The position numbers and the translations under genes were made by a program. The notes beneath the pieces were generated by a model, which saw nothing but the letters and a program-made list of their open reading frames with translations, had not been told where the DNA came from and did not search any database. From contig PLLE01000046.1 in assembly GCA_003141245.1 (NCBI GenBank), positions 62,841 through 126,840 on the forward strand: DNA of 64,000 bases, read 5' to 3'. Below are positions 33,512 through 41,820 of this stretch, one piece after another. The DNA is from Chloroflexota bacterium. Lineage in GTDB: Bacteria; Chloroflexota; Limnocylindria; Limnocylindrales; CSP1-4. How positions within the stretch are numbered: the first letter of the stretch is position 1; each line of letters starts with the position of its first letter.

Positions 33512-33851
33512 ACTCTCGCCCCGACCACTTACAGGTGAACTGAACTCCGCCGGGAGCACCGCCGCGAAGCCATGGCGGACCGCGTGCTCACTGAGATACG
33601 CCGTGGCCTCGCGCACCCGTCGCGCGGAAGAGCAAACGATGCAGGCCCTCGGGTGGACTAGATGCGCCCATCGCAGGACGATACCTCCCCCGGGTGCCGG
33701 GTCGTGTCTGGCAGTCGGCCGCCACCCTCTCGGCAGCCGGCTGATCGCTCCGCGGCTCCCATCCTGCTGACTCGCGCGCTGCGGGTCGTCTACGATGGGC
33801 GCGGCTAGGCAGGCGGTCCGCCTGGCGCCGGGCAATCCGACGGAGAGACGG

Positions 33852-35498
33852 ATGAGCGGGGAACCGAACCTCCTCTACTACGGCGACAACCTCGACGTGC
33901 TGCGACGGCATGTCCGCGACGAGTCGGTCGATCTCGTCTACCTCGACCCGCCGTTCAACTCAAACGCGAATTACAACGTGCTGTTCGCCGAACATGGCAC
34001 ACGGGCGGCCGCGCAGATACAGGCGTTCGAGGACACGTGGGAGTGGAACGAGGAGTCAGCGGCGACATATCAGGAAACCGTCGAGCGCGGTGGCGAGGTC
34101 GCCAATGCGCTCTTGTCGTTCAGGACCCTGATCGGGACGTCGGACATGCTGGCGTACCTGTCGATGATGGCCCCGCGGCTTGTCGAGCTGCATCGCGTCC
34201 TCAAGCCGATCGGCTCGCTCTATCTGCACTGCGACCCGACCGCGAGCCACTATCTCAAGCTCCTGCTCGACGCGGTGTTCGGCCCGCAGAACTTCCGGAG
34301 CGAGATCATCTGGAAGCGGACTAGCGGACACAGCGACGCACGCGGCTACGGGGCGGTGCATGACGTGCTGCTCTACTACGTTGCGTCGGACGCCGCGACT
34401 TGGAACCGAATCTTCCAGGCTTACGATCCCGGTTATGTCGAGCAGTACTACCGCTATGCGGACCCCAATGGCCGCAAGTTCATGTCGGGCGACATCTCGG
34501 CGGCCGGGCTGTCCGGGGGCGGTTACGAGTACGAATGGCGCGGCGTTACGAGGGTTTGGCGTGTTCCGCTGACGAGCATGGAGAAGCTCGAAGGTGAGGG
34601 CCGGGTCTTCTACACGAAGAACGGCATTCCACGACTGAAGCGCTACCTCGATGAGTCCAAGGGACTCCCGGCCCAGGACGTCTGGGCCGACATCGAGCCG
34701 CTGCGATCTTGGCACGCCGAGAGGCTCGGATACCCGACACAGAAGCCGCTCGCGCTCGCCGAACGCCTCATCGAAGCGTCCTCTGGCCCTGGCGATGTCG
34801 TCTTGGACCCCTTCTGCGGCTGCGGCACGACTATCGACGCGGCGCAGGCCCTCGGGCGTCGCTGGATCGGAATCGACATCACGCACCTGTCCATCGGCCT
34901 CATCAAACACCGGCTGACTGATCGCTATGGCCCGGAGATCGCGAAGACATACAAGGTTGTCGGCGAACCTACGACGGCCGACGATGCAGCTGTCCTGGCG
35001 CGCGAGGACCCGTTCCAGTTCCAGGCGTGGGCGCTCGGCCTCGTGGGCGCGAGGGTGGCCGGGAGCGACAAGAAGGGCGGCGACAAGGGGATCGACGGCC
35101 GCCTCTACTTCCACGACTCGGCAGGCGGCCAGACCCGACAGATCGTGTTCTCCGTCAAGGCGGGCGAGCACCTCGTGCCGGCTTACGTGAACGAGCTACG
35201 CGGCGTGATCGAGCGCGAGCATGCCGACATCGGCGTGCTCATCACGTTCAAGGAACCAACGGCCGGCATGCGATCGGAGGCTGCCGGCGCGGGCTTCTAC
35301 ACCTCGCCATGGGGGAACCACCCACGGCTCCAACTCCGGACTGTCGGCCAATTGCTCACCGGCCAGGGCGTCGACTACCCGCACGTCACGGGCTCCAACG
35401 TGACGCACCGCCGCGCCGTTCCCGCCCGGCCAAACGCTCCCGAGACGATAGGTCTATTCGAGCGGGCCGCAGAGGAGCCGGAGGAGTACGGCTCCTAG
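33852..35498 (+). CDS. beta-class N6A/N4C DNA methyltransferase fused to a C-terminal Mrr-like (PD-(D/E)xK) nuclease domain
   Basis: Motif IV 'DLVYLDPPFNS' precedes motif I 'VLDPFCGCGTT'. C-terminus 'GGDKGIDGRLYF...IVFSVKAG'. ATG 33852 with a GGAGAGA RBS. Confidence 0.85.
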   Translation: MSGEPNLLYYGDNLDVLRRHVRDESVDLVYLDPPFNSNANYNVLFAEHGTRAAAQIQAFEDTWEWNEESAATYQETVERGGEVANALLSFRTLIGTSDMLAYLSMMAPRLVELHRVLKPIGSLYLHCDPTASHYLKLLLDAVFGPQNFRSEIIWKRTSGHSDARGYGAVHDVLLYYVASDAATWNRIFQAYDPGYVEQYYRYADPNGRKFMSGDISAAGLSGGGYEYEWRGVTRVWRVPLTSMEKLEGEGRVFYTKNGIPRLKRYLDESKGLPAQDVWADIEPLRSWHAERLGYPTQKPLALAERLIEASSGPGDVVLDPFCGCGTTIDAAQALGRRWIGIDITHLSIGLIKHRLTDRYGPEIAKTYKVVGEPTTADDAAVLAREDPFQFQAWALGLVGARVAGSDKKGGDKGIDGRLYFHDSAGGQTRQIVFSVKAGEHLVPAYVNELRGVIEREHADIGVLITFKEPTAGMRSEAAGAGFYTSPWGNHPRLQLRTVGQLLTGQGVDYPHVTGSNVTHRRAVPARPNAPETIGLFERAAEEPEEYGS

Positions 35499-36538: not shown

Positions 36539-38017
36539 CTACTCCCAGCCGGCGGTGCCAATCTGGTAGAGGTCCGGCGGACAGCGCAATTCGCGGTATG
36601 TTCCCTTCGTCGATGCAATGAGGGCGTACCCAGGGACATGGAAGGCGAGGCCCTTGGGATCGAGCTCGCTCGACGTGGAATCGAACACGGCCTCTCCGAG
36701 CACGCAGTCGGTCCGTCCAGCGTCTCGTGCGCGTCGATCAACCGCTTCTACGACCCAAACGAAGCGAGGGAACCTGGCCATCCTGTATTCGCGAGCGACC
36801 GCGTTGGGCATCCGTCGCATCGCCTCGTCTTTGAAATGGTTAGCGGAGGTCGCGTAGGTACGAAAGGCGAGAGCACCCGCGGAGATGCAGTCACTAAGGG
36901 CTTTGGCATCTGGAACCGCCGCTTGCACCATCGAGGCAATCTGCTGCAGGAACGTGGCGCCCACGCCTTCCGCGGGTTCGGGCGGCAGCCAGAGCTTCTC
37001 GGGCAGCGGGACGACCAGGGCCGTCCAGGGCGAGTACCGGTAACCGTTGACCCCCACGTCGTTGAAGACTGACTTCACGGGTTGATATGGACCGAGTTGA
37101 TCGTCCTGCCGAACAAACTCGATCCACGAGCCGCCGCTTGGGTTTGGCGTGCGCCGGTAACCGACGAGCACAAAGGCGTGTTCGCCGTTCCCCACGAGGA
37201 CTGGGATTCCAGAATTCAGATACCTACAGATCGTACCGAAGAGCTTTGTGTTCCACAGTCCACCATGGAGCTGCTTCCCGTTGGCATCCACCACGGGGAT
37301 CGGGTCCGGCGGTGCACAAGGAGGCGTGGGTTCGACGGTCTTGAGTGCGTCGACGTCGTATAGGCGAGCCGGCAAGTCGAAGACTCGGAATAGTTCAACC
37401 AGCTGTCCAACGGTCAGCCCTTCGGAGGGCACTGGACGCGTGGGGCTCATCGAGGGGTTCGACATGAGATTGAAGGCAGCGATCGGCCGTCTCGGGACGA
37501 TGCCCCTCCTGTGAGCCACGTAGTGGCAGACCCAGGCGGCAGCGTGGGCGCATCGGTCCAGTTGGGCGTCCTGCTCCATAAACGGGACGGCTCGGATCGA
37601 GATTGTCTGGCCGAAGAAGTGGACGTTCTCTTGAATCGTAGTCAGAACGGCATCGTCAAGACCTGGAGGCGGTGCCAGCATGGTTCTGCCCACTCGACCG
37701 AGCTGCGTTGGCGGCCGAACCACCATGTACCCGAGGTAACCTGCGTCGACGGGGATCTCCCACAGCCGATCAGGCGAGATCGGGCCTTTGAAGAAGTGGA
37801 GTCGATGGGCCGTGTCGTAATGCGTGGAAAACGCCCGAGCGTGGAACGCGACGTACTCGCTCCGGAAGTCCGGGTCGATATATCTCGTCTCGATGACGAC
37901 TGTGAGCGCCCCGGCAGCCTTGGCAACGTCTAGACAATGCTTTAGAGGGTCGGGATTCCGGGCAGGGTACTGGCCTAGAAGCCACGTCCAGTCTCTTGGA
38001 TGTGCCAGGATGCGCAC
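36539..38017 (-). CDS. predicted papain-like (C39-like) cysteine peptidase with unknown N- and C-terminal domains
   Basis: 'QDAQLDRCAHAAAWVCHY' (Q..C), 'GNGEHAFVLVGY' (His) and 'FVRQDDQLGPY' (Asp) occur in papain-fold order. No HExxH. The track start at 38119 adds an Arg/Pro-rich head that overlaps a better small ORF. Confidence 0.5.
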   Translation of the reverse strand: MRILAHPRDWTWLLGQYPARNPDPLKHCLDVAKAAGALTVVIETRYIDPDFRSEYVAFHARAFSTHYDTAHRLHFFKGPISPDRLWEIPVDAGYLGYMVVRPPTQLGRVGRTMLAPPPGLDDAVLTTIQENVHFFGQTISIRAVPFMEQDAQLDRCAHAAAWVCHYVAHRRGIVPRRPIAAFNLMSNPSMSPTRPVPSEGLTVGQLVELFRVFDLPARLYDVDALKTVEPTPPCAPPDPIPVVDANGKQLHGGLWNTKLFGTICRYLNSGIPVLVGNGEHAFVLVGYRRTPNPSGGSWIEFVRQDDQLGPYQPVKSVFNDVGVNGYRYSPWTALVVPLPEKLWLPPEPAEGVGATFLQQIASMVQAAVPDAKALSDCISAGALAFRTYATSANHFKDEAMRRMPNAVAREYRMARFPRFVWVVEAVDRRARDAGRTDCVLGEAVFDSTSSELDPKGLAFHVPGYALIASTKGTYRELRCPPDLYQIGTAGWE

Positions 38018-38057
38018 CTTCGCGGGATCGGGATCCTCCCACGCCCCCCGCCGCACG

Positions 38058-38249
38058 TCAGCCCAGCCGCAATGTCGAGGCGTCGGCCTCGGCCTTGCGG
38101 CGCGCACGGGCCTGCTCATCGAGCTTCTTCTCGATGGCGCGCCTTTGCTCCCTATCGAACAGATCCATGGGGTCTCGGAGTCCGCCGAGCTTGGATCCTT
38201 GGATGGGGGTCAACTCAGGCAGCACGGAGCGGGGCTGCGGCCGAGCCAT
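38058..38249 (-). CDS. small charged helical protein, unknown function
   Basis: 63 aa. ATG 38249 is preceded by AGAGGAGAGA with 5 nt spacing. 'DPMDLFDREQRRAIEKKLDEQARARRKAEADA'. Confidence 0.45.
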   Translation of the reverse strand: MARPQPRSVLPELTPIQGSKLGGLRDPMDLFDREQRRAIEKKLDEQARARRKAEADASTLRLG

Positions 38250-38293
38250 TTGTCTCTCCTCTGAGGCTGACGGTGCTCTCTGGGGACGCTCGC

Positions 38294-38686
38294 CTATTCT
38301 GAGCCCCCGTCAAGCGACTCGCTCGCCAGGATCGCGTCATAGATGAAGCGCCATCGTTGCGCGCTCACGGGCGCCTTGCCCGCAACCCGAAGCCCGGCGA
38401 GCACCTGGACCTCGGAGGTGGGTATCCGTCGTTCCTCGGCCACGCGCCGCAGGCCATCTGGGATGTCGGCTGGCATGGACGAGCCCTGGAGCAGGGGCCC
38501 AAGCACGTCCTCAAGGCGTTGCAGGGCGTCGGCCCCGGGCCGACGGGTCCGGCCATGCTCTATTGCGTTGATATAGGCCCTGGAGAGCCCGGTTCGGCGC
38601 GAGACCTCAGCCAGGCTCCATGACTTGCGCGAGCGGGCGTCGACTATGCGTCTGCCGAGTTTCGAGCCCGCCTCATCTGTCAGCAA
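38294..38686 (-). CDS. XRE-family HTH transcriptional regulator
   Basis: 'RKSWSLAEVSRRTGLSRAYINAIEHGR' is an HTH_3 motif. The upstream 65 aa of the track ORF overlap the Ubl gene on the opposite strand. I use TTG 38686 (GGAG 9 nt upstream). Start is uncertain. Confidence 0.75.
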   Translation of the reverse strand: MLTDEAGSKLGRRIVDARSRKSWSLAEVSRRTGLSRAYINAIEHGRTRRPGADALQRLEDVLGPLLQGSSMPADIPDGLRRVAEERRIPTSEVQVLAGLRVAGKAPVSAQRWRFIYDAILASESLDGGSE

Positions 38687-38767: not shown

Positions 38768-39043
38768 ATGGCCCACAAGCTGAACCTGAGCATCAGGGCG
38801 ACGAACGGAGCCCAGTGGGAGACCGACGAGTTCGGGCTCAACCAGCGGGTCGATCATGTTCGTAAAGCAGCCGAGAAGCATTTCGAGCAGGCGGGAGAGA
38901 TGTCGCCCGGCGACTACCTCCTCGGCCTTGTGGTCGATGGCACGATCCAGGACCTGATCGACTCGGAGAAACTTGAGGACGCAGGCATCAAGGACGGTTC
39001 CGTGCTTGTGCTCAAGCCCCGCGGCGGCCAGGTGGACGGCTAG
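38768..39043 (+). CDS. ubiquitin-like (beta-grasp) protein with C-terminal RGG-QVDG
   Basis: 91 aa with an AGGAGA RBS. 'DLIDSEKLEDAGIKDGSVLVLKPRGGQVDG' parallels the ubiquitin C-terminus (..LVLRLRGG). First gene of the E2/JAB/E1 operon. Confidence 0.75.
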   Translation: MAHKLNLSIRATNGAQWETDEFGLNQRVDHVRKAAEKHFEQAGEMSPGDYLLGLVVDGTIQDLIDSEKLEDAGIKDGSVLVLKPRGGQVDG

Positions 39044-39469
39044 ATGAAGCCCGAGCTAGCCGAGGAACTTCTCGATGGAGAGCTTGAAGTAGTCCGGGAC
39101 TCCATCAGCTCCCGCGGGGTGACGGTCTGGCGCGAGGGTACGGACGTGTTCGTGCAATTCGAACACGGTCGGGATGGGAATCCCGGGGTATTCAGACTCG
39201 CCTGTGGACAGTTCGACGCCGAGTCGCCCTCGGTGTCGATGGTCGACCCCACAGCGCACACCGAGCTGTCGATGGAGCAGTGGACGCCGGGCGTGCCGCA
39301 CAGCGTCCATCCCCTCACGGGCAAGCCGTTTGTGTGCCTGCAAGGGACCGCCGAATATCACACGCATCCCTCGCACCTCGCTGACAGTTGGGACCGCTAC
39401 CGTCGCGTCTTCCGGCTAAAGGAGACGGTCCACCGGCTTCTCCAGAAAGCGGGGGTTGCTGACGTATGA
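39044..39469 (+). CDS. UBC-like E2 ubiquitin-conjugating-enzyme homologue
   Basis: 'VHPLTGKPFVCLQG' mirrors the eukaryotic HPN...G.(I/V)CL catalytic-Cys motif. The start immediately follows the Ubl stop (TAGATG). Confidence 0.7.
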   Translation: MKPELAEELLDGELEVVRDSISSRGVTVWREGTDVFVQFEHGRDGNPGVFRLACGQFDAESPSVSMVDPTAHTELSMEQWTPGVPHSVHPLTGKPFVCLQGTAEYHTHPSHLADSWDRYRRVFRLKETVHRLLQKAGVADV

Positions 39470-39927
39470 TCCTCCACCTTTCCCGAAAGGCACTCGAGGA
39501 GGCCCGGCTCTTCTTCGAAGAGGCCGGTTCGCGCGGCTGCGAGGGAACTGGGATGCTGGCCGGAGTTCGCCTCGTCGACGGATGGCGCGCGGAGCGATTT
39601 CTGGCGCCCGAGCAGAGGGCGTCCGCGGGACCAGGCGTTTGGGTGGAGGTCGCAGATCGCGGCAAGGCCCAGATCGCGACGGCCCTCGGGCCAGGCGAGC
39701 TCTGGATCGCGCGGATCCACTCCCACCCGGGCGCGGCATTCCACAGTGCGACCGACGACAGCAATCCAGTCATCACCGCTGAGGGATCGTGGTCGATAGT
39801 CGTTCCCTACTTCGGGCTGGGCCTTCGGCGCGGGGCGGCTGCCTGCGCCTTCTTCATCAGGCAGGGTGGCAGGTGGCGCCAGGTCGCCCCAGATGATGTC
39901 GAGAGGTGTGTCCGTGTCGGAGCGTGA
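39466..39927 (+). CDS. JAB/MPN (JAMM) metallopeptidase
   Basis: Glu in 'GCEGTGML' and 'IHSHPGAAFHSATD' (HxH...S..D). ATGA overlap with E2. Confidence 0.85.
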   Translation: MILHLSRKALEEARLFFEEAGSRGCEGTGMLAGVRLVDGWRAERFLAPEQRASAGPGVWVEVADRGKAQIATALGPGELWIARIHSHPGAAFHSATDDSNPVITAEGSWSIVVPYFGLGLRRGAAACAFFIRQGGRWRQVAPDDVERCVRVGA

Positions 39928-41407
39928 CCTCGACCCTCGGACCGGACTCGTCCCAGGCCCCGGCGCGGCCGCACTGCTGCGCCGACTGGACTCGACCCGA
40001 GTACTGATTCGGACCACGGCCGACAGTGGCGCCCTGGCGCTGTCGCTCGCAAACCATCTGGTGCGCATATGCCCGAGCGTCGCTGTCGATGCTCCGCCAA
40101 TCGGCGTGAACCTGCCAGTCTTCGGTATGGGGACGCTGCCCGAGCTGGCGGCCCGTCTTCTAAACCAAGCACGGATCGGGCGAGCTGAGGGAGCGGAAGG
40201 CCCGGCGAACCTTGTCATCGGCGTCGGTGACGTCACCGCAGGAGCAGACCTCTACGTCTCCGCCAACGGGTGGTCGCTGCGGCTTAGCGTCGATCCCCAC
40301 GAACCCTTGGCCGGCAGAGGCCCGGCCGTCTCGGCAGCTGCGGCCCTCGCGGCGGCCGAGGTATTCAGGCGACTGCTGCCCGAACTGCCCGGGGTCCGGC
40401 TGGCTCGCGATTTCGAGTGGAACCTCTGCGATTACCGGACGCGCGTTTCGGAGGCCTTTCCGCCCGCAGCGCCAGTGGACGCCGTGTGCTTCGGCGCGGG
40501 ATCCGTGGGCTCCTCTCTTGTCCTTGCACTGCTGCTAAGCAGGGCTATGGGGGATCTGGTGGTCGTTGATGACGACCGGCTTGAGTCTCGCAACCGACTC
40601 AAGTACCCCGCCTGGATCGGAGAACCGGGCGTGCGCGCAAAGGTCGACTGGCTCCAGGGCCTGGCCCTAGGAACTTCCCTTCGGGTGACCCCTTACCACG
40701 GAAGCTGCGCCGATTGGCAGGAATCGGGCCCATCCGCCCCGGCGATGGCAGTCGCAGCGGTAGACACCAGGGAGGGCCGGAGGCAAGTAGCCGACGTCCT
40801 CGCCAGGGAGACCCTCAACGCTGGCATCGAGGGACTGGCGATGCACGTGAGCCGGAATCGCTTCGGGGACGGGCTGGCATGTGTGTATTGCCCTTACGTC
40901 GACACGTCCGACAGGGCCTCTGAGACCGATGTCCTCCGCGAACTCACCGGGCTGGATTCCGCCAGACTGCTGGAACTCCTCGGCGGGTCCAAACTCACGG
41001 CTGAGGACGTGAATCGGATGGTCGCCGGCGGCAGGCTATCGGAGGCCGACTTCGATCTCGTAGGCGGGCGCATTGGCGATGTGGCCAGGGCAAGGTTGTA
41101 CGCCGGCGCAAGAGTCAAGACAGGAAGCGGGATCGCCGAGGTGAATGCCCCGTTCGTCCCAGCGTTGGCTGGCGCCATCCTCGCCGCCGAGATGCTCAAA
41201 GCGCCTGGCTCCGCAGCGGTTCTCGATCGACGGGTGGACGTTGACTGCTCAGGGCTTCCGACCGGCTGGACGAGCAGGCCAGTTGCCGACCCGTCTGGGC
41301 GCTGCCTCTGTCACAGCCAGGTCCGGCGTCGCGCGTACCTCAGAGCCTGGCCCAAGGAGTATCCGCCGGCCGGAGTCGCCGAGCCTAAAGGAAACATGAA
41401 GCGATGA
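39914..41407 (+). CDS. ThiF/MoeB-type E1-like adenylating enzyme with N-terminal extra domain
   Basis: 'VCFGAGSVGSSLVLALLL...LVVVDDDRLESRNRLKY' is a Rossmann fold plus the Arg finger region. CxxC in 'ACVYCPY' and 'RCLCH'. GTG 39914 follows GAGAGG. ATG 39893/39896 are alternatives. Confidence 0.85.
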   Translation: MSERDLDPRTGLVPGPGAAALLRRLDSTRVLIRTTADSGALALSLANHLVRICPSVAVDAPPIGVNLPVFGMGTLPELAARLLNQARIGRAEGAEGPANLVIGVGDVTAGADLYVSANGWSLRLSVDPHEPLAGRGPAVSAAAALAAAEVFRRLLPELPGVRLARDFEWNLCDYRTRVSEAFPPAAPVDAVCFGAGSVGSSLVLALLLSRAMGDLVVVDDDRLESRNRLKYPAWIGEPGVRAKVDWLQGLALGTSLRVTPYHGSCADWQESGPSAPAMAVAAVDTREGRRQVADVLARETLNAGIEGLAMHVSRNRFGDGLACVYCPYVDTSDRASETDVLRELTGLDSARLLELLGGSKLTAEDVNRMVAGGRLSEADFDLVGGRIGDVARARLYAGARVKTGSGIAEVNAPFVPALAGAILAAEMLKAPGSAAVLDRRVDVDCSGLPTGWTSRPVADPSGRCLCHSQVRRRAYLRAWPKEYPPAGVAEPKGNMKR

Positions 41408-41820
41408 GCACCTCGTCCGCGCCCGAGCGCGAGTTGGCTGACTTCCTTGCCACGTGGACACGTCGTCGCCCTGGATGGCAGTTCGTCGGTACGGGCGGAA
41501 ACCGGAGGTTGCGTTCCGCCGAAGCGCTAGCCCGCGACCTCCTCGATGACGCGGAATTCGCGGAGTTCAGAGTCGCGGAATGGCTACGCACCCCAGAGGG
41601 GAGAATCGTCGAAGCAGCCGTCTCCCAGGTCCTACCATGGCCCGGGTCGGCGGAGTTTCAGCTCCTGGTCGAGGCGATATCCCTCGCGGCGAAGGCGAAG
41701 GCGAAGGCGAAGGCGAAGCAGAGGCAGCACATACGATTTGCGCTGCGGTTGCCCCTGCCTTGGACCATGTCGGTCTGGTGGCGTGGCTTTCCGGTCCAAC
41801 TTGCCTGCGGTGAGAGTTAG
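41404..41820 (+). CDS. hypothetical protein translationally coupled to E1
   Basis: 138 aa with an ATGA overlap to E1 and an AAGGA RBS. It contains the (AK)5 repeat 'AAKAKAKAKAKQ'. No family recognised. Confidence 0.5.
   Translation: MSTSSAPERELADFLATWTRRRPGWQFVGTGGNRRLRSAEALARDLLDDAEFAEFRVAEWLRTPEGRIVEAAVSQVLPWPGSAEFQLLVEAISLAAKAKAKAKAKQRQHIRFALRLPLPWTMSVWWRGFPVQLACGES

Follow-up and report, generated by a model that had tools for sequence, protein, structure and literature searches.

We found that the window (the whole stretch of 64,000 nucleotides analysed) carries a Bil-type operon whose ubiquitin-like protein (Ubl) is very likely produced directly in its mature form. On the basis of conservation, and by analogy with a characterised system, the terminal Gly91 would be the residue that is adenylated and linked to targets, the internal pair Gly86-Gly87 would have no role, and the JAB peptidase of the operon would not be needed for maturation. 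A side finding, probably more interesting than the glycine question, is that the E1 of the operon belongs to a clade in which the place of the catalytic cysteine is taken by an invariant tyrosine. The genes of the operon and their neighbours are the following (window coordinates):

36539-38119, minus strand: 526-aa protein without family match, co-conserved with the HTH gene upstream of the operon in the nearer subclade.
38294-38686, minus strand: XRE/CapH-like HTH regulator, 130 aa as called, divergent from the operon and conserved upstream of it in the nearer subclade.
38768-39043, plus strand: Ubl (BilA-like), 91 aa, predicted beta-grasp with a flexible tail R85-G91, in which D90-G91 is invariant and G86-G87 is not conserved.
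39044-39469, plus strand: E2 (BilB-like, CEHH type), 141 aa, PF14455, its start abutting the Ubl stop (TAGATG).
39466-39927, plus strand: JAB/JAMM peptidase (BilC-like), 153 aa, matching BilC (8tyx_B) at 1.1e-10.
39914-41407, plus strand: E1 (BilD-like), 497 aa, with inactive and active adenylation domains and a five-helix insertion.
41404-41820, plus strand: 138-aa ORF that contains an (AK)n repeat and overlaps the stop of the E1 gene (ATGA).

The Ubl is the first gene of the operon: its TAG stop runs straight into the ATG of the E2 gene, and the three genes that follow (E2, JAB and E1) are translationally coupled. The assignment of the Ubl to an operon with JAB, E2 and E1, of which an earlier note on this DNA had named the co-encoded JAB, is correct, and the order Ubl-E2-JAB-E1 is kept in the 26 related loci with a recovered Ubl. 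The E2 matched the Pfam family Metal_CEHH (PF14455) with 27.6 bits, the cut-off being 25, and carries Cys98 within PFVCLQG, followed by E104, H106 and H111 (catalytic stretch PFVC98LQGTAEYHTHPSH). Its sole meaningful match in the PDB was BilB of Ensifer aridi (8tyz_C), with PFVCLQGTAEYHTHPSH aligned to PFLCMAGVREYHDNPAH. The active site of the JAB peptidase is complete (E26, H85-S-H87...S94..D97). In all loci that allowed a reading, the catalytic cysteine of the E2 and the active site of the JAB are preserved. We also asked whether the 138-aa ORF is a core component. Locus L005 and identical contigs have it, it was not detected in the other related loci, and it probably does not belong to the core of the system.

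The Ubl open reading frame (38768-39043, plus strand) has 91 codons, an ATG start and an AGGAG upstream, and the start codon is backed by 91-aa homologues that open with M-[AS]-[HQ]-K. The C-terminal end of the protein is VLVLKPRGGQVDG, immediately followed by the stop; the last residues read GSVLVLKPRGGQVDG and are followed by TAG. The ending of GG followed by QVDG, from which the earlier note had started, is real: it was read directly in the ORF, and the same 91-aa protein is present on six contigs. Three of the loci, which come from three different samples, were compared with the window. Two are 100% identical to it over ~6.2 kb. The third (L035, 103-378, against window 38768-39043) differs at 15 bases of the Ubl gene and at no amino acid, and the E2 beside it differs at 57 bases and 16 residues. 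The identity of the Ubl across samples, together with 15 differences that are all synonymous, indicates that the sequence is not an assembly artefact. The same pattern of substitution indicates that the Ubl is under very strong purifying selection, with a ubiquitin-like conservation within the lineage.

By sequence, the Ubl gave no useful match in Pfam, PADLOC or the PDB, whether the protein or its profile was used as query. The sole match, to ribitol 2-dehydrogenase (5jo9, E 0.0085), was discarded as spurious. Because the sequence libraries gave nothing useful, the fold was established by AlphaFold2 and Foldseek. The model, built from 43 homologues, has a pLDDT of 90.2, with strands at residues 4-10, 16-23, 50-56, 59-62 and 79-84 and a helix at 28-41; residues 88-91 lie in a flexible tail with pLDDT <50. 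Searched against the PDB, its top matches were ubiquitin variants, NEDD8, ISG15 and SUMO. As modelled, the Ubl is a ubiquitin-like beta-grasp protein.

To see which glycine is conserved, we collected distant relatives by a profile search of 1.8 billion representative proteins, to which 4 species-genome loci and 27 metagenome loci were added. The resulting set comprises 63 proteins carrying the C-terminal motif, which reads P-[QK]-[VT]-D-G across the family (n=63). Numbered as in the window Ubl, the positions of the tail are occupied as follows (n=63):

Position 86: Gly in 14, Asp in 13, Lys in 11, Glu in 8, Ala in 8, and others, Gln included.
Position 87: Pro in 53, Ala in 6, Gly in 2.
Position 88: Gln in 53, Lys in 8.
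Position 89: Val in 55, Thr in 7.
Position 90: Asp in 63 of 63.
Position 91: Gly in 62 of 63.

The two carriers of Gly87 are the window Ubl and its 90%-identical relative alone. Most of the proteins (57/63) end exactly at the Gly of the motif, and the other 6/63 continue for 3-11 unconserved amino acids beyond it. All 13 close homologues end with R-G-[G/A/P]-Q-V-D-G. In an alignment of 43 sequences reaching down to 27% identity, F39, D90 and G91 are the only invariant columns, and P87 is conserved in at least 90%. Since Gly87 occurs in 2/63 proteins and Gly86 in 14/63, the GG appears to be a lineage-specific coincidence in a tail whose conserved part is QVDG. The window codon 87 (GGC) is two steps away from the usual CCC, via GCC (Ala), and there are close relatives with Ala or Pro at this position. 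Thus, from sequence comparison, Gly86-Gly87 would have no special role, 86 being a variable position and 87 normally that of the motif proline, and the significance that the earlier note had given to the di-glycine is lost. The same note had proposed a homologue alignment as the sequence half of a refutation test; the alignment revealed no conserved internal GG and one conserved terminal Gly.

The conservation of the 3' end of the gene could partly reflect the ribosome-binding site of the downstream gene. The stop codon directly follows the Gly codon in 25 of 26 loci, all three types of stop codon occur, and all four codons of the tail show synonymous differences among relatives. The mixed stop codons and the synonymous variation of the tail indicate that it is the end of the protein that is constrained, over and above any effect of the ribosome-binding site downstream. 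The synonymous variation and the existence of K-T-D-G variants argue, in turn, for selection at the protein level.

Conservation and analogy therefore point to Gly91 as the residue to be adenylated. One of the two options of the earlier note, adenylation at the Gly that closes QVDG, is backed by how conserved this residue is, by where the stop codon lies and by the length of the tail compared with that of E. aridi BilA. Since the window Ubl stops at this conserved Gly91, it would need no trimming. On this reading, the terminal Gly91 of QVDG is where the chemistry would start, and the full-length Ubl, not a version truncated to end at GG, is the form to use in constructs, mass-spectrometry searches for remnants and activity assays.

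The course of events that we propose is the following. The Ubl would leave the ribosome already mature, its flexible tail ending at Gly91 of the family-wide motif P-Q-V-D-G. The E1 would adenylate Gly91, which would end up linked to targets. After adenylation, Cys98 of the E2 would take over the Ubl and a lysine of the target would then receive it, in the manner of E. aridi BilABCD. On the E1, the intermediate may be a Ubl~Tyr oxyester at Y396, of the kind proposed for the Bub E1, or it may be skipped, in which case Cys98 of the E2 would attack the adenylate directly. Finally, the JAB peptidase would cut after ...DG, removing the Ubl from conjugates and clearing the short tails found in a few relatives that have lost the stop.

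The step on the E1 deserves a closer description. The reference is the Type II BilABCD system, formerly the CEHH/6C operon, of Ensifer aridi TW10 (PDB 8TYX, 8TYZ and 8TZ0; Chambers et al., bioRxiv 10.1101/2023.09.26.559546). In its E1, BilD, the Cys417 of the helical insertion is required, C417A being inactive, and R246A is inactive as well; in its E2, BilB, the catalytic cysteine is C138, and a four-Cys Zn site lies at the E1-E2 interface (bioRxiv 10.1101/2023.09.26.559546). BilD (8tyz_A) was the sole significant match of the window E1 among PDB sequences (3.9e-14). The AlphaFold2 model of the window E1 (pLDDT 86) fits BilD along the entire chain, with eukaryotic E1s ranking far behind, and Foldseek aligned it with 8tz0_A and 8tyz_A at E 1.9e-28 and a TM of 0.68-0.73. 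The Zn ligands of the window E1 (C323, C326, C464 and C466) are invariant both in its clade and in the E. aridi family.

The clade of the window E1 comprises at least 54 members, 54 being the number of full-length sequences; it is monophyletic with support 1.0 and sits on a long branch. In a joint alignment, the column of E. aridi BilD Cys417 holds Tyr in 54/54 sequences of this clade vs Cys in 115/115 sequences of the E. aridi family. In the window E1 the residue is Y396 (window 41099-41101, within the E1 gene at 39914-41407). The pairing of Y396 with C417 was also obtained with phmmer and with MAFFT L-INS-i. In a smaller MAFFT alignment of 25 sequences the Tyr falls one column off C417, whereas phmmer and the two larger alignments place both in the same column. 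The lack of a conserved Cys in the insertion is independent of the alignment register: the insertion of the window E1 (~residues 330-412) contains no Cys, 49/54 E1s of the clade have none in it, and the other 5 have Cys at unrelated positions. The only fully invariant residues of the insertion in the clade are Y396 and L355. In the AlphaFold2 model, Y396 is located at the end of the five-helix insertion, closing it, and the helix before it carries R386, D389 and R392, which are near-invariant and clade-specific. C192 and C445 were considered as alternative catalytic cysteines and rejected, being present in 18/24 and 13/24 sequences, respectively, and lying outside the insertion.

Without the E1 cysteine, the mechanism of E. 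aridi does not transfer as it stands. According to Ye et al. (PMC11601596), all known E1s have a catalytic cysteine except BubCD, in which an invariant Tyr370 is essential, Y370F abolishes conjugation and a Ubl~Tyr oxyester is proposed. By analogy, Y396 resembles the catalytic tyrosine of the Bub E1. The two systems share an E1 without catalytic Cys and with an invariant Tyr in the crossover region, a Ubl that ends at a conserved Gly, and the presence of a JAB peptidase. In other respects they differ. The Bub E1 is minimal, homodimeric, ThiF/UBA5-like and fused to the JAB domain (or lacks it), whereas the window E1 is a multidomain enzyme of BilD type and its JAB is a separate gene; the Bub E2 uses Ser, whereas the window E2 keeps Cys; and the Type I Bub Ubl is a Ubl-E2 fusion that requires cleavage, whereas the window Ubl would need none. 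Among the neighbours of the operon in the window, no gene resembling that of BubE, the serine protease of Bub pathways, was recognised with Pfam or PADLOC.

Because the E2 cysteine is retained in all loci checked, a relay from a Tyr-E1 to a Cys-E2 can reasonably be inferred. We tentatively propose, as a possibility that we would take seriously while giving it somewhat less than even weight, a hybrid relay of this Chloroflexi/Actinobacteria clade in which a multidomain E1 forms a Ubl~Tyr oxyester at Y396 and hands the Ubl to the E2 Cys, with a clade-specific P-Q-V-D-G tail whose invariant Asp, beside the reactive Gly, would be co-adapted to this chemistry. It would be a second independent origin of a Tyr-E1 after Bub, and the first with a Cys E2. 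In a full-text literature search, no description of a Bil-type E1 with tyrosine turned up. Should the Tyr prove catalytic, E1 chemistry through an oxyester would have arisen more than once and would be able to supply an E2 that works by thioester.

The adenylation site of the window E1 has a peculiarity of its own. At the position of the adenylation Arg, corresponding to E. aridi R246, it carries K230 (window 40601-40603, codon AAG); this column holds Arg in 53/54 E1s of the clade and in 115/115 E1s of the E. aridi family. An assembly error was considered and rejected: the same base is present in the contigs of two other samples, and Lys recurs at E1 position 230 in locus L017, which is ~79% identical, while L005, L006 and L014 have Arg. 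By comparison among relatives, K230 looks like a tolerated conservative variant; by analogy with the Arg of E. aridi, it could lower the activity of the window's own E1.

K230 and the missing cysteine are the two observations in favour of an explanation that departs from the standard conjugation cascade, in which the E1 would only adenylate Gly91 and what follows would be a direct attack by the E2, a transfer to a non-protein acceptor or a sulfur chemistry as in ThiS/MoaD, or else the window would hold a copy attenuated by K230. In the same direction, ThiF/MoeB-type enzymes act through adenylation chemistry. On the other side, all loci checked conserve the E2 Cys with its CEHH residues and the JAB site, as expected for conjugation and deconjugation, and both the architecture of BilD and its four-Cys Zn site are retained in the E1; moreover, Lys recurs in the second, ~79%-identical relative, and the Ubl is under strong purifying selection. 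We regard this explanation as unlikely.

The other departures from the favoured reading concern the trimming of the tail, and they can be judged against the E. aridi Ubl. The end of E. aridi BilA is ...LFLSLKAGVAG97-A98; BilC cuts at G97|A98, and the conjugated form is the G97-terminated one only (bioRxiv 10.1101/2023.09.26.559546). More generally, pre-processing of the Ubl by JAB is a published property of Type II Bil, and Type II BilA proteins have a universally conserved Gly followed by up to nine "non-conserved" residues (bioRxiv 10.1101/2023.09.26.559546). In a Bradyrhizobium-type operon of the E. aridi family (L036), the Ubl has ...LSLKAGAAG and then ADAAGR. The window Ubl and E. aridi BilA were aligned with hhalign, and in this weak match (E 0.0026, probability 11%) R85 pairs with K92. 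Taking this weak pairing as the origin, the tail has 6 residues to G91 vs 5 to G97 in E. aridi, and it has 2 to G87 and 1 to G86. A tail ending at G87 or G86 would probably be too short to reach the adenylation site.

The other option of the earlier note is that of a ubiquitin-style precursor, in which the JAB peptidase removes QVDG, exposes Gly86-Gly87, and Gly87 is adenylated. By eye, VLVLKPRGG does resemble the LVLRLRGG of ubiquitin, and JAB-dependent pre-processing of the C terminus is proven for E. aridi BilA. However, the usual residue 87 is Pro (53/63), with Gly87 in 2/63 and Gly86 in 14/63; QVDG is the conserved part of the tail, and not a disposable propeptide; G87 lies 2 residues past the position aligned to K92, against 5 in the proven E. 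aridi system; and the genuine extra tails of relatives come after DG. We thus consider this option very improbable.

Eukaryotic ubiquitin, NEDD8, SUMO and ISG15 share with the window Ubl the beta-grasp, the flexible C-terminal tail and an activated terminal Gly. They are made with an extension after GG that is removed by a protease, whereas the window Ubl gene stops at the predicted reactive Gly, and the window Ubl has a penultimate Asp instead of Gly and a longer tail. The pattern of a ubiquitin-type precursor is absent from the family, with GG in 2/63 and QVDG as the most conserved segment of the Ubl.

A cut after Gly86, in which R-G|[G/A/P] would mimic the E. aridi G97|A98 and JAB would remove the five residues GQVDG, is the least credible of the readings: R85-G86 is invariant in the 13 closest homologues with G, A or P following at 87, superficially like G97-A98, but outside the closest subclade a variety of residues (D, K, E, A, Q and others) occupies position 86, and PQVDG is far more conserved than the tail of any described Type II BilA.

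If, as favoured here, the window Ubl is adenylated at Gly91 as translated, the JAB peptidase should have another task. The window Ubl needs no trimming, yet JAB is intact everywhere it is readable, which points to deconjugation as its main role. In L011 (4113-4137), P0075, P0076, P0091, P0092, P0098, P0141 and P0014 the stop after DG is lost, and the frame is read through for 3-11 residues; in P0014 the read-through continues into the start of the E2 sequence. By analogy with E. aridi, such tailed relatives may be natural precursor forms, which would need trimming by JAB. Because they carry residues after DG, they mark DG| as the predicted JAB cleavage site. In the window's family, this site after the terminal DG would be needed for trimming only in the few relatives with extra tails. 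The conserved job of JAB would most likely be deconjugation, together with the clearing of an occasional tail after DG.

In general, the resemblance of the system to Type II Bil is extensive. They share the order Ubl-E2-JAB-E1, a CEHH E2 with its Cys, a JAB with the H-S-H-P...H-S..D motif, an E1 with inactive and active adenylation domains, helical insertion and four Zn cysteines, a single beta-grasp Ubl with a flexible tail and a conserved Gly at or near its end, and a divergent upstream HTH gene. Differences are also evident. The E1 Cys417 is replaced by an invariant Tyr in the window's clade. The Pfam family Prok-E2_C (PF14459) matches E. aridi BilD at 7e-77 and not the window E1; indeed, on the window E1 and on a relative, Pfam returned only a weak match to ThiF. 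The tail of the window's family, PQVDG, usually ends at the Gly, whereas in the E. aridi family 1-9 further residues come after ...KAG[VA]AG. In L036, the partner of the HTH gene is CapP (Peptidase_M78), whereas in the window it is the 526-aa protein. Lastly, the relatives of the window system for which records are named are Chloroflexi and Actinobacteria MAGs, and not Rhizobiaceae. The PADLOC profiles for Bil (Type I) gave weak matches (BilB 4.2e-4, BilC 3.5e-9, BilD 1.4e-7) and none for BilA. The system forms a clade of its own, sister to Type II Bil; it lacks one defining feature, the catalytic Cys of the E1, in parallel with Bub. In this frame, there is nothing out of the ordinary in the glycine finding itself, which amounts to a Ubl made in mature form by a relative of a published system.

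In the nearer subclade, at least 8 loci have the HTH gene and the gene of the 526-aa protein conserved upstream of the operon; the more distant subclade has neither. A 63-aa ORF is also present in this divergent group (window 36539-38686, minus strand). Furthermore, among the 41 genomes searched (the window's own and 40 relatives of its genus and order), an E1 of this type was found in the window's own genome alone, which indicates that the system is an accessory, island-borne trait. A few kb upstream (window 33795-35498, plus strand), a gene encodes a DNA methyltransferase (N6_N4_Mtase) with a fused Mrr/NA-iREase-like nuclease domain, in keeping with a location in a defence island.
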